Source: Escherichia phage vB_EcoM-VpaE1
Reading direction: 5' to 3' (one strand)
DNA: 64,000 bases
Sequence record: KM657822
The position numbers and the translations under genes were made by a program. Each line of letters opens with the position of its first letter. The stretch's first letter is position 1. Positions 4,000-5,743 of the stretch are shown here, piece after piece. Below the pieces are notes generated by a model. That model did no database searches. It was not told the DNA's origin and saw only the letters and a list, made by a program, of their open reading frames with translations.

Positions 4000-4557
4000 A
4001 TGAGATATTTGAAGTATGCTTCATGGATTTTCCTAGCTTTACTAGAACCATTTGCAGCAACCCTAGCAGTCATCTTAGCACCTTTCGTAGTTCCATTCTA
4101 CAGTGAGAAGAAAGGACATCTACCTTTTGGATTCAGATGGATGGAGACCTATGACAACCCAATTGATGGTGATGAAGGCCACGTTAAAAGATGGGCTAAG
4201 ATTAGAAAGATTGGTAAGCTGGGTGTCTACATGCAGAGAGTTGGATGGCTCTGGAGAAACAAAGCTTATAACTTCTCTTACCATGTATTAGGAAGAGATG
4301 TAAAAGATGTTACTAAGTGGAAAGGTAATATCAACGTAAGTTCTAACCCTGAAGATAATCAGACTGGTTATCTCCTAATGTGGAACAGTAATGCTTGGGG
4401 ATTATTCGCTTTTATCCCATCAATTAAAGTCTTTGGTAAACAGTTTTACTGGAGAATTTATGTTGGGTGGAAACTTAAAAGTGTTGTCCCAGAAGAAAGA
4501 GCATTCTCAAGGGAAAGAGTTATGTTGGCATTCTTTATTCATCCACTGAGAAAGTAA
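4000..4557 (+). CDS. hypothetical membrane protein embedded in tRNA cluster
   Basis: 185 aa ORF with SD-like GAGAGG upstream; hydrophobic N-terminus (WIFLALLEPFAATLAVILAPFVVPF); Trp-rich. Confidence 0.45.
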   Translation: MRYLKYASWIFLALLEPFAATLAVILAPFVVPFYSEKKGHLPFGFRWMETYDNPIDGDEGHVKRWAKIRKIGKLGVYMQRVGWLWRNKAYNFSYHVLGRDVKDVTKWKGNINVSSNPEDNQTGYLLMWNSNAWGLFAFIPSIKVFGKQFYWRIYVGWKLKSVVPEERAFSRERVMLAFFIHPLRK

Positions 4558-4565
4558 AGATTTAA

Positions 4566-4641
4566 AGGGGATTAGTTTACAAGGTTAAAACCTCGGTCTT
4601 TGAAATCGAAGAAGTTGGTTCAATTCCAACATCCCCCGCCA
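4566..4641 (+). tRNA. tRNA-Gln (TTG)
   Basis: D-stem GTTT/AAAC, anticodon loop ctttgaa, T-arm GTTGGTTCAATTCCAAC, discriminator G, CCA. Confidence 0.6.
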
Positions 4642-4643
4642 AT

Positions 4644-4722
4644 GCTCCATTACTCCAATTGGCAGAGAGGCCAGACTTAAAATCTGTGTTATGTATCGGT
4701 TCGAATCCGATATGGAGTACCA
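4644..4722 (+). tRNA. tRNA-Leu (TAA), short variable arm
   Basis: Anticodon loop cttaaaa, T-arm ATCGGTTCGAATCCGAT, discriminator A, CCA; D-stem covaries with the 3903 tRNA. Confidence 0.5.
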
Positions 4723-4727
4723 AATTT

Positions 4728-4803
4728 AGCGGTATAGCATAACTGGCAATGCAACAGTCTCTGAAGCTGTCCTATTAAGGTTCAAATCCTTATGCCGCTG
4801 CCA
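4728..4803 (+). tRNA. tRNA-Gln (CTG)
   Basis: Anticodon stem ACAGT/GCTGT with loop ctctgaa, T-arm TAAGGTTCAAATCCTTA, discriminator G, CCA. Confidence 0.6.
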
Positions 4804-4834
4804 CTTCTAAGGGTTCTTACGAGAGTCCTTAAAT

Positions 4835-4910
4835 GTGGCCTTATCATAAATGGTAATGACCCATGCTGTGAACATGGTCTATACGGGTTCAAATCCCGTA
4901 GGTCACCCCA
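4835..4910 (+). tRNA. tRNA-His (GTG)
   Basis: Anticodon stem CCATG/CATGG with loop ctgtgaa, T-arm ACGGGTTCAAATCCCGT, CCA. Confidence 0.65.
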
Positions 4911-4916
4911 ATTTAT

Positions 4917-4992
4917 AGTCCAAGTAGCTTATATGGTTAAAGCGCGTGTCTGAAAAACATGAGAAGAGGGTTCAAATCCCACTGGACTACCA
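4917..4992 (+). tRNA. tRNA-Phe (GAA)
   Basis: D-stem GCTT/AAGC, anticodon stem CGTGT/ACATG with loop ctgaaaa, T-loop TTCAAAT, CCA. Confidence 0.6.
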
Positions 4993-5008
4993 ATTTCAAA
5001 GGTGCTTA

Positions 5009-5743
5009 ATGAAAGAGATGACAGAACAAGGTAAGGAGATTTTTAATCTCTTAAAAACCGGTAAAGGGTTTTCTAACCCACTTATTACTGGTGCAGCAGT
5101 TCTCGGTGGAACCGTAGCTGCCTCTACATCACTTGTAAGCTCTATTAGCTCTGTAACAGACCCTGCAATGAAGGAGAAACTTGTTGCTGCTGGACTTACA
5201 ACAGTCCTTCTAAACAGCTTTACAACAAGCCTTACAAGCACTACAGCAACTACTAAGACCCTAACAGACTACGGTCAAAAGTCTATTGATGAGTTTTCAT
5301 CACGTATGCAGGTAGCAAAGGGATATTCCAATGTTATGGGTGCAGCAGGAGAACAGGTTGGTTGTACACCATTCAGTGGTATTATGGGTGTTGCTACAGA
5401 ATATGGTCAAAAAGCTATTGACACAATTAACAGTACACTAGATAGTGTTAATGGTGTGTTAAGTGACTTACAAGATGCTATTGATAAGGGTCTTGATACT
5501 GTTTCTGATTTAGCTAACCAAGCTGTTAGTAAGATTAATGAAGGTATCTCAAAGATTACAGCTTATGCAGATGAAGTTGTGCAGATGATTGAAGAAGAAG
5601 CTGCCCTTATTGCAGAGTACCTTAAAACGAATATCAATGGGTTCTTAGCAGGTATCTTACCAGACTGGTTTGACGATGCTTGTAAAACTGGTGTGATTGA
5701 CACTATTGCAACACCAGAAATGAAGAACGCATTACAGAAATAA
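5009..5743 (+). CDS. hypothetical Ser/Thr-rich protein embedded in tRNA cluster
   Basis: 244 aa from ATG 5009; track ORF start 4946 would overlap tRNA-Phe; stop sits 2 nt before tRNA-Ser. Confidence 0.5.
   Translation: MKEMTEQGKEIFNLLKTGKGFSNPLITGAAVLGGTVAASTSLVSSISSVTDPAMKEKLVAAGLTTVLLNSFTTSLTSTTATTKTLTDYGQKSIDEFSSRMQVAKGYSNVMGAAGEQVGCTPFSGIMGVATEYGQKAIDTINSTLDSVNGVLSDLQDAIDKGLDTVSDLANQAVSKINEGISKITAYADEVVQMIEEEAALIAEYLKTNINGFLAGILPDWFDDACKTGVIDTIATPEMKNALQK

Follow-up and report, generated by a model that had tools for sequence, protein, structure and literature searches.

Two open reading frames (ORFs) lodged in a tRNA gene cluster, here called ORF A and ORF B, were analyzed in the window, a 64,000-nucleotide (nt) stretch of Escherichia phage vB_EcoM-VpaE1 (sequence record KM657822) that consists of Felixounavirus (Felix O1-like myovirus) DNA. 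Sequence conservation marks both as genuine protein-coding genes, and both are accessory phage genes within the tRNA operon. The best explanation overall, to which we give slightly less than an even chance, is that ORF A would serve in lysis timing and ORF B in an envelope- or virion-linked role. Taken on its own, the proposal that ORF A is a lysis-timing membrane protein, either a holin with a topology like that of T of phage T4 or a partner that regulates the holin, would stand at about even or marginally better. The suggestion for ORF B, a membrane- or envelope-interacting protein possibly carried in the virion at low copy number, is weakly supported. The two genes and the signals attached to them are the following.

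4000–4557, plus strand: ORF A, 185 amino acids (aa), ATG start, DUF7338 / phrog_2143
3986–3991, plus strand: Shine-Dalgarno (SD)-like GAGAGG, 8 nt 5' of the ORF A ATG, by direct reading of the sequence
4018–4098, plus strand: region encoding the predicted transmembrane (TM) helix of ORF A (about residues 7–33), from hydropathy, AlphaFold2 (AF2) and alignment
5009–5743, plus strand: ORF B, 244 aa from ATG, DUF7217 / phrog_2114
4998–5004, plus strand: SD-like AAAGGTG, 4 nt 5' of the ORF B ATG, by direct reading of the sequence

The original prediction, made from the sequence alone, had placed a Trp-rich membrane protein and a Ser/Thr-rich protein within the tRNA cluster, a few nt from the neighboring tRNAs. 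Both genes, with these positions and lengths, held up on the basis of Pfam and PHROG matches, ratios of nonsynonymous to synonymous substitution rates (dN/dS) and the SD motifs. ORF A (21.9 kDa, isoelectric point (pI) 10.0) contains 10 Trp residues (5.4%) and one predicted TM helix, ORF B (25.6 kDa, pI 4.5) consists of Ser and Thr to 19.7%, and the distances to the adjacent tRNAs are 1–19 nt.

A lysis role for ORF A is proposed because its homologues occur repeatedly in lysis cassettes. All ORFs within 4 kb of ORF A homologues were clustered across 62 loci (locus numbers below refer to this survey), and the homologues themselves fell into 14 lineages at 60% identity, 13 of them divergent. The commonest companion family of the divergent homologues was Phage_lysozyme PF00959 (E 1e-38 to 6e-48). 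An adjacent endolysin was found in four of the 13 divergent lineages, mostly from uncultivated phages, and the endolysins belonged to four enzyme classes. The arrangements were as follows.

Group G1, eight loci (L061, L062, L065, L071, L072, L076, L078, L082): DUF7338, zero to two small genes, GH24 lysozyme, Rz/Rz1
Group G2, five loci (L085–L089): convergent GH24 lysozyme 212 nt from DUF7338
Group G3, four loci (L069, L070, L074, L077): a 104-aa protein with one transmembrane domain (TMD) and a 109-aa protein with two to three TMDs, DUF7338, amidase endolysin
Group G4, one locus (L091): GH108 endolysin 579 nt 3' of DUF7338, after a C-terminally anchored protein
Salmonella phage S16 (T4-like): DUF7338 gp73, one small ORF, Phage_lysozyme gene about 0.9 kb downstream

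In group G1, the GH24 lysozyme carries an N-terminal hydrophobic segment rich in Ala, Gly and Ser that resembles a signal-anchor-release (SAR) domain, and it is followed by an i-spanin of the Rz type (PF03245), within which a lipoprotein ORF is embedded. DUF7338 was the sole membrane protein found 5' of the endolysin in the cassettes of L061 and L071. The amidase of group G3 lies 3–4 nt 3' of DUF7338 and belongs to Amidase_3 in one locus and to Amidase_2 in three. Adjacency to an endolysin regardless of its enzyme class, together with separately encoded spanins, is the signature of holins and their regulators. Under the assumption that a random gene has odds of about 7% of lying within about 1.5 kb of the sole endolysin of a 45-kb phage, at least four such lineages among 13 would arise by chance with a probability near 1% by our own estimate.

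Between DUF7338 and the SAR-type GH24 endolysin, four loci encode a conserved protein of 89–100 aa (L065 6583–6852, L076 6561–6848, L078 6576–6848, L082 1385–1687). Besides its one N-terminal TMD, this protein has an RR motif and a coiled coil; it found no match in Pfam or PHROG and may, judging from its sequence, be an uncharacterised holin or antiholin partner.

ORF A is a typical, full-length member of DUF7338 and PHROG 2143 (E 4.7e-61 and 1e-80). In Pfam, it scored 206 bits against a gathering cut-off of 27 bits, with residues 1–184 aligned to positions 1–176 of the 180-position profile, and PF24027 was present in 39 of 39 homologues. The motifs ETYDNPIDGD, WLWRNKAYNF and GWKLK as well as the protein length are common to ORF A and its relatives, and the sharers of the DUF7338 motifs comprise Ounavirinae, Straboviridae, Av-05, Pseudomonas and Aeromonas phages and many metagenomic phages. 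Neither Pfam nor PHROGs gives a function for DUF7338 or PHROG 2143, and our literature search returned no papers on DUF7338 or DUF7217.

A single hydrophobic segment was found at about residues 7–33 (Kyte-Doolittle 19-residue maximum 2.1), and the AF2 model (predicted local distance difference test (pLDDT) 94, predicted template modelling score (pTM) 0.83) has a helix at residues 2–33. Within the predicted helix P28 is invariant in the alignment, and an acidic residue at mid-helix is conserved (E16, mostly Asp in the homologues) without forming an invariant column. Among 27 homologues, the N-terminal flank carries a charge of +1 to +3 (one is without charge) and lacks acidic residues in 24, and the C-terminal flank is mixed or net negative; these flank charges suggest an N-in/C-out orientation. 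ORF A is thus probably a single-pass inner-membrane protein of this topology. The C-terminal part forms an alpha/beta domain of about 150 residues that is basic (pI about 10) and rich in Trp. No fold match for this domain was found among solved structures outside its own family, and a comparison of the profiles of both families with all PDB chains returned nothing meaningful.

Several observations weigh against a lysis role and need to be considered together. In the remaining nine of the 13 divergent lineages, no endolysin was present in the locus sequence examined; their contexts include DNA polymerase with tRNAs, the ends of tail-fiber modules and radical-SAM genes. Most DUF7338 lysis cassettes hold another small membrane protein, so that either of the two roles could fall to ORF A. 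T50, D52, R86, N87, R152, and K158, which are polar and strongly conserved, suggest a binding or catalytic site more than a typical holin. The T4-like phages carrying ORF A presumably already have the holin T. In Bas63 the endolysin is encoded about 8 kb from the ORF A orthologue, and the two genes are not adjacent in the window either. The whole genome of Erwinia phage Tian (Kolesnikvirus) contains no ORF A, although a tRNA cluster and ORF B are present, and ORF A is therefore not a core lysis gene of the subfamily. The early expression (5 min) reported for Felix O1 ORF48, the ORF A orthologue, would be unusual for a holin (PMC3185647).

Furthermore, a competing holin candidate was recognized by sequence at the end of the tail-fiber module, where two small proteins are encoded.

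29293–29487, plus strand: 64-aa hydrophobic protein, Felix O1 gp78
29488–29859, plus strand: 123-aa protein with one N-terminal TMD and a coiled coil, Felix O1 gp79

The gp79-like protein is conserved across the subfamily and shares 24% identity (E 1e-7) with a Tian protein annotated as 'putative holin' by reference to Moogle. It showed no similarity to the small one-TMD protein beside DUF7338 in the metagenomic cassettes.

ORF B matched DUF7217 in Pfam over nearly its full length (295 bits, E 5.5e-88, gathering cut-off 29 bits; residues 8–243 against positions 2–238 of 238). The AF2 model (pLDDT 93.4) consists of helices throughout, and ORF B is, on this model, an acidic all-helical bundle. 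Residues 25–47 (LITGAAVLGGTVAASTSLVSSIS) form a helix rich in Gly, Ala, Ser and Thr with a borderline hydropathy of 1.62. C119 and C225, the only cysteines of the window protein, do not vary among Ounavirinae and Ackermannviridae. With 185 clusters at 50% identity among 1.84 billion representatives, the family is of moderate size, and its members are mostly stand-alone proteins of 220–290 aa, with no known domain fused in the longer ones.

Across Ounavirinae the gene order is the last tRNAs, ORF B, one or two small ORFs, the large terminase subunit gene TerL, and the portal gene. Both Erwinia phage Tian (44% identity) and Yersinia phage P778 (39%) keep this order, and ORF B can equally be regarded as a member of the tRNA cluster and as the gene that precedes the packaging module. 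In Ackermannviridae, the homologue lies between the capsid-gene region and gp3 (tail completion), away from tRNAs. Dickeya phage LIMEstone1 ORF129 aligned with ORF B over the full length (27% identity, E 2e-27), and this protein was listed among the LIMEstone1 virion proteins by electrospray ionization tandem mass spectrometry (25.03 kDa, 18% coverage, two peptides). The helix at residues 25–47, the invariant Cys pair and a weak similarity to tape-measure proteins are compatible with contact of ORF B with the membrane or periplasm.

In Ackermannviridae loci L006 (7886–7925) and L004 (5960–5992), a GC-rich hairpin ATACCCCC....GGGGGTAT with a T run ends 1–3 nt before the DUF7217 start codon, which places the terminator of the upstream gene essentially on the ribosome-binding region. 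A search for a T4-type late promoter 5' of the Ackermannviridae homologues gave only this start-abutting hairpin and an imperfect TAAATAC.

The weak tape-measure similarity spans residues ~28–216 and involves PHROGs 305, 1535, 4200, and 1272 (E 8.5e-6 to 3e-3). Like tail tape-measure proteins, ORF B is helical and rich in Ala, Gly, Ser and Thr; unlike them, it has only 244 aa and lies upstream of the terminase gene, outside the tail module. A tape-measure identity was rejected for its shortness and position, and because the true gene lies elsewhere by orthology (Felix O1 gp67; the tape measure domain protein of Tian). The similarity may be compositional.

Other findings speak against a virion-linked role of ORF B. 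The LIMEstone1 virion list also holds evident non-structural contaminants identified by single peptides. VpaE1 ORF47, which is ORF B, bears no structural label, with 22 VpaE1 virion proteins found by mass spectrometry, and its orthologue is absent from the whole-phage shotgun list of Felix O1 (PMC3185647). ORF B matched no PDB chain, although portal chains nearly identical to that of the window have been deposited. Of at least 23 virion gene products, the Bas63 reconstruction covers 22, without mention of the ORF B orthologue; the cryo-EM paper mentions neither gp153 nor gp159, the Bas63 orthologues of ORF A and ORF B, and both are likewise unmentioned in the text of the PhageMaP preprint on Bas63. 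Two further DUF7217 contexts are non-structural: in a 116-kb phage the neighbors are DNA ligase and glycosyltransferase-like genes, and in the other case the gene is surrounded by small accessory genes. The pattern-based locus search for ORF B in IMG/VR yielded Ounavirinae and Ackermannviridae only, and these wider contexts come from single look-ups and are heterogeneous. One of the look-ups, locus L150 (3461–5615), encodes a 618-aa protein with a central DUF7217 directly after PAAR-motif and Mtd_N tail-fiber-like proteins. This arrangement hints that some phages may use the domain in a tail-tip module.

For the Felix O1 orthologue of ORF B, a published assignment needs to be treated with care. 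The Felix O1 paper attributed the major 51-kDa virion band to 'gp49' and suggested it to be the sheath (PMC3185647). RefSeq NC_005282 ORF49 has 244 aa and 25.6 kDa, at odds with this band, and gp63 has 48.9 kDa and is in the shotgun list. Most likely, the 51-kDa 'gp49' band refers to gp63 through a numbering slip that spread. The value of the ORF B results is mainly negative: no reliance should be placed on the published structural assignment of 'gp49' as the 51-kDa protein of the virion.

The surroundings of both genes are the following.

27–914: 3' part of a vWFA / DUF2828 + DUF7788 gene, its start lying before the window, directly 5' of the tRNA cluster
925–956: terminator-like hairpin, the upstream bracket of the tRNA/ORF block
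1080–5917, all plus strand: 25 tRNA genes (ARAGORN)
2430–2458, plus strand: sigma70-like promoter TTGACA-17 nt-TATAGT (11/12), inside the cluster and 5' of ORF A and ORF B
3903–3980, plus strand: tRNA-Leu(caa) with encoded CCA (ARAGORN), ending 19 nt 5' of the ORF A start
4566–4992, plus strand: five tRNAs (Gln-ttg, Leu-taa, Gln-ctg, His-gtg, Phe-gaa) between ORF A and ORF B (ARAGORN and Rfam)
5745–5917, plus strand: tRNA-Ser(gct) and tRNA-Cys(gca), the last genes of the tRNA/ORF block (ARAGORN and Rfam)
6080–6097, plus strand: terminator-like hairpin GACGG...CCGTC + TTTTTT, between the tRNA/ORF block and the small ORF/terminase genes, the top-scoring site
Downstream of the block: a small ORF, then the large terminase subunit gene (6347–7963) and the portal gene (7971–9446)

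The gene layout of the window is the same as in Felix O1. ORF A corresponds to Felix O1 ORF48 (RefSeq), Bas63 gp153 and VpaE1 ORF46, and ORF B to Felix O1 ORF49 (RefSeq), Bas63 gp159 and VpaE1 ORF47. GenBank labels for both genes vary between 'hypothetical' and 'putative membrane protein', and ORF A is sometimes called 'holin'. ORF A lies 19 nt after the end of tRNA-Leu(caa) at 3980 and 8 nt before the start of tRNA-Gln(ttg) at 4566. For ORF B, the start lies 16 nt past tRNA-Phe, and the last letter of the stop codon is 5743, which leaves 1 nt to tRNA-Ser(gct) at 5745; the original prediction was right about this proximity and had put it at 2 nt, a trivial difference. The mechanical frame of ORF B opens at GTG 4946, a start that is unlikely to be in use because it overlaps tRNA-Phe (4917–4992). 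An AAAGGTG comparable to that of ORF B is found upstream of its Erwinia phage orthologue.

Rfam recovered 24 of the 25 tRNA positions at E ≤ 0.01, and its coordinates indicate that the CCA ends of the tRNAs are encoded in the genome; for tRNA-Leu(caa), the match spans 3903–3977 and the CCA is therefore genomic. tRNA-Ser 2979–3068 and tRNA-Tyr 1581–1668 were matched in Rfam solely as sub-threshold tRNA-Sec. The ARAGORN call of a tRNA-Met(cat) at 1333–1409 (plus strand) was missed by the Rfam tRNA model at E ≤ 0.01, and its Felix O1 counterpart has a low Cove score of 28.9; it may be a degenerate or unusual tRNA.

The protein encoded at 27–914 belongs to phrog_850 ('RNA-binding protein', Ro60-like). 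Its Bas63 orthologue gp130 was reported to counter the Ppl defense system, with the speculation that some of the 'tRNAs' near it are Y-RNA-like (PMC11482910). A Ro60/vWFA-like gene also lies 5' of the tRNA block in Yersinia phage P778.

Co-transcription of ORF A and ORF B with the tRNAs early in infection, a further part of the original prediction, is plausible as an inference from these signals, and its timing rests on crude data. Both ORFs would be transcribed with the tRNAs from sigma70-type promoters. The site at 2430–2458 was the top promoter-like site of the scan and is identical in sequence and position (just past tRNA-Ile) to the proposed Felix O1 promoter P45 (PMC3185647). The region contains 12 promoter-like sites, compared to 11.9 in shuffled sequences; with no excess over the shuffles, the site is supported by its conservation and not by the scan. 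Terminator-like sites numbered nine, compared to 4.0 ± 2.0 in shuffles. From the promoter at 2430–2458 to the hairpin at 6080–6097, the scan found no terminator-like site with a strong T run, and its sole plus-strand match inside the block was a weak 5-bp stem with a T-poor tail within ORF B (5066–5079). In Felix O1, Whichard et al. observed maximal signals for ORFs 48 and 49 at 5 min after infection by reverse-transcription polymerase chain reaction (RT-PCR) (PMC3185647, Table 3). The same list includes the major capsid gene, which makes the timing crude and its support weak.

Rfam returned sub-threshold tmRNA matches at 2357–2663 (plus strand), 32.5 bits for the permuted form (gathering score 47) and 14.3 bits for tmRNA. 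They overlap tRNA-Ile, cross the tRNA-free gap with the P45-like promoter and reach tRNA-Arg. The announcement of phage Mushroom notes a tmRNA in Felix O1 per ARAGORN; ARAGORN called no tmRNA in the window, and the matches are probably noise.

The alternative that the original prediction had favored, that both proteins are early host-interaction factors (exclusion or immunity proteins like T4 Imm or Sp, or counter-defense proteins), appears unlikely to us, although several features agree with it. The RT-PCR maxima at 5 min and the sigma70-like promoters in and before the cluster would suit early genes, ORF A is membrane-anchored with a probable periplasmic domain, ORF B has a weakly hydrophobic helix, both are accessory and patchily distributed across families, and the neighboring Ro60/vWFA-like gene is reported to counter Ppl in Bas63 (PMC11482910). 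Against it, neither protein matched an anti-defense or host-takeover family, Imm or Sp. ORF A gave no matches in PADLOC and NCBIfam, and ORF B only sub-threshold ones to the coiled-coil proteins ZorA and JetC (E 1e-3 to 0.2, far below the cut-offs). The comparative context points elsewhere: the strongest signal for ORF A is adjacency to endolysins and spanins and not to early genes, and the Ackermannviridae homologue of ORF B lies between head genes and gp3 and was detected in particles. Moreover, an RT-PCR list that calls the major capsid gene early is unreliable. The host-interaction part of the prediction found no direct support.

A stricter form of the lysis proposal sees in DUF7338 the primary, class III-type holin of Felix O1-like phages, which would combine a single TMD with a large periplasmic domain and make the membrane permeable to the soluble endolysin. 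We regard this as rather improbable. In its favor, the topology resembles that of T4 T, the label 'holin' is found in Mushroom, whose annotators assigned ORF A to the class III holins on topology alone, and in several GenBank records, and DUF7338 is the sole membrane protein 5' of the endolysin in L061 and L071. Furthermore, the literature has established no holin for Felix O1-like phages; several candidates are listed in the Felix O1 genome literature. Conversely, the Meda genome announcement (2019), which reports that a holin was not identified, counts against this form. DUF7338 is absent in Kolesnikvirus, which has the same endolysin and spanin set, coexists with holin-like proteins of two to three TMDs in group G3 and with small one-TMD proteins in group G1, and was reported to be expressed early; the gp79-like second candidate is kept across the subfamily. 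Neither the sequence nor the fold of ORF A is related to T: a Pfam scan at E ≤ 1 gave DUF7338 alone, ruling out membership in the Phage_holin_T family, and the soluble domain has a fold unlike the periplasmic domain of T.

As for ORF B, an alternative to the envelope- or virion-linked reading is that the protein is exported by a SAR-like helix and acts outside the virion, as a disulfide-bonded periplasmic factor that is antiholin-like or modifies the envelope. SAR domains are rich in Gly, Ala, Ser and Thr and weakly hydrophobic. The composition of the helix at residues 25–47 is of this kind in an acidic protein, the sole cysteines are the invariant C119 and C225, the protein is absent from Felixounavirus virion proteomes and structures, and several annotators call it a putative membrane protein. 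This possibility nevertheless seems quite improbable, with AF2 packing the helix into a confident soluble bundle and the segment beginning 24 residues into the protein. Outside three Ounavirinae genera, ORF B does not co-occur with ORF A, the LIMEstone1 homologue was detected in particles by mass spectrometry, and one DUF7217 protein is encoded beside a PAAR spike gene.

The recurrent proximity of ORF A homologues to tRNA genes was assessed separately. Among the 597 phage records matched by ORF A in tblastn are Felixounavirus, Suspvirus and Mooglevirus-type phages, many Straboviridae (JS98, S16, KP15/KP27-like, GAP161-like, and others; about 55–61% identity), Av-05, Pseudomonas phiPsa-type phages, Aeromonas phages, and others. 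In the Straboviridae loci (L035–L059, about 20 read), a same-strand tRNA nearly always ends 70–1100 nt 5' of the homologue; the exceptions in this range are L043 and the more divergent L055–L057. In contig L033 and in Av-05 (L034) the homologue lies inside a tRNA cluster, and in metagenomic loci it starts 16–21 nt (L060, L063) or about 265 nt (L066) after a tRNA. The association with tRNAs is thus recurrent in at least four to five lineages.

Locus L043 (5917–6554), in a 121-kb viral contig, holds a DUF7338 homologue split into overlapping ORFs of 101 and 120 aa. It is about 87% identical to ORF A by BLASTP and adjoins an anaerobic ribonucleotide reductase activase-like gene, and its surroundings lack tRNAs. 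The split may reflect a frameshifted pseudogene or a sequencing error.

Such an association in or directly behind tRNA clusters, seen in several unrelated phage groups, could indicate a role of ORF A in processing, protection or use of phage tRNAs. We consider this role very unlikely. ORF A is a membrane protein without a nucleic-acid-binding or RNA-enzyme signature, and many homologues are in lysis cassettes with no tRNA in the locus sequence examined. In T4-like phages the tRNA block is close to the lysozyme gene region, so the nearness to tRNAs could be a side effect. Accessory genes are known to accumulate in tRNA regions, and Felix O1 has HNH endonuclease genes in its own.

The 2.3 kb around both ORFs is 95–99% identical at the nucleotide level to more than 200 Felixounavirus phage records with an identical arrangement (closest match: Escherichia phage EC106, 98.6%), in line with the conservation in relatives on which the original prediction had been made to depend. 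Pairwise dN/dS values against Felixounavirus orthologues were 0.009–0.196 for ORF A and 0.074–0.159 for ORF B, with dS above 1 for some pairs, and by these values both ORFs are under strong purifying selection. The notion of chance open frames in an unexpressed inter-tRNA spacer, for which nothing speaks except the odd position, can be dismissed as refuted by these conservation data, by the strong Pfam/PHROG matches, the SD motifs on both genes, hundreds of orthologues (down to 25–30% identity in further phage families), confident AF2 folds for both and transcripts detected in Felix O1.

Five tRNAs and a distance of 455 nt separate ORF A from ORF B in all the Felixounavirus-type loci examined. 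ORF B occurs without ORF A in Erwinia Kolesnikvirus and in Ackermannviridae, and ORF A occurs without ORF B nearby in the T4-like loci read. As each gene is found without the other in some groups, there is no evidence of a joint system, and by this distribution the two act independently and are not a functional pair.

As written, the finding is an ordinary one: both products are already known as conserved hypothetical proteins in two Pfam DUFs and hundreds of sequenced phages. What is new is a lead on the function of DUF7338, namely that of a lysis-cassette protein whose topology is T-like and whose fold is unmatched, and this lead bears on the holin question of Felix O1-like phages. These phages are diagnostic and biocontrol workhorses, and their genome papers disagree on the holin. 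If DUF7338 is a lysis-cassette gene, a DUF family with matches in 597 phage records gains a testable function, the genus a lysis-clock candidate and many T4-like phages an accessory lysis factor. The boldest version, in which DUF7338 would be a new and widespread holin- or antiholin-type lysis-timing family with one TMD, a globular periplasmic domain of an unseen fold, and lysis control coupled to the tRNA operon, is a long shot on sequence evidence. On this view, the gene has come to lie close behind a tRNA time and again in large virulent phages (Felix O1-like, Av-05, T4-like, and others). If true, tRNA processing would both produce the DUF7338 mRNA and fix its ends, linking lysis control to the expression of the tRNA operon, and ORF A would be part of the holin system of Felix O1-like phages. 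Independently of its product, the tight tRNA-ORF-tRNA packing offers a simple natural system for the question of whether tRNA maturation defines the ends of phage mRNAs.

This packing resembles the tRNA punctuation of mitochondria (cleavage by RNase P and RNase Z) and the ORFs of the T4 tRNA region. As in these, same-strand tRNAs lie 1–19 nt away, there is no space for an own promoter or terminator, and the SD motif is in the short spacer after an encoded CCA. The coding regions start 16–19 nt after a tRNA and stop 1–8 nt before the next, and by this analogy the ends of the ORF A and ORF B mRNAs are probably set by tRNA maturation, which would excise them from the precursor. Unlike in mitochondria, bacterial 3' maturation proceeds by RNase E and then exonucleases, and the likeness here is an analogy drawn from gene positions. 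In three separate lineages, the DUF7338 coding start lies 16–27 nt past the 3' end of a same-strand tRNA (tRNA end/DUF7338 start: L060 5980/5998, L063 3638/3655, L033 5973/6001, window 3980/4000), a gap with space for scarcely more than a ribosome-binding site.

ORF B shares with LIMEstone1 ORF129 ('unknown structural protein') and CBA120 orf171 the same length (242–247 aa), an all-helical nature and the Cys pair. It differs in that the Ackermannviridae gene lies away from tRNAs and in that the two-peptide association with particles was not reproduced in Felixounavirus particles. Finally, the homologues of ORF A occupy the holin position, usually beside a second small membrane protein, as in holin/antiholin pairs. 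Like the T4 holin T with its antiholin RI, ORF A is predicted to begin with one TM helix, for which N-in/C-out is the probable orientation, and to continue in a globular domain of some 150 residues, and like T, it is encoded far from the endolysin in a large virulent myovirus.

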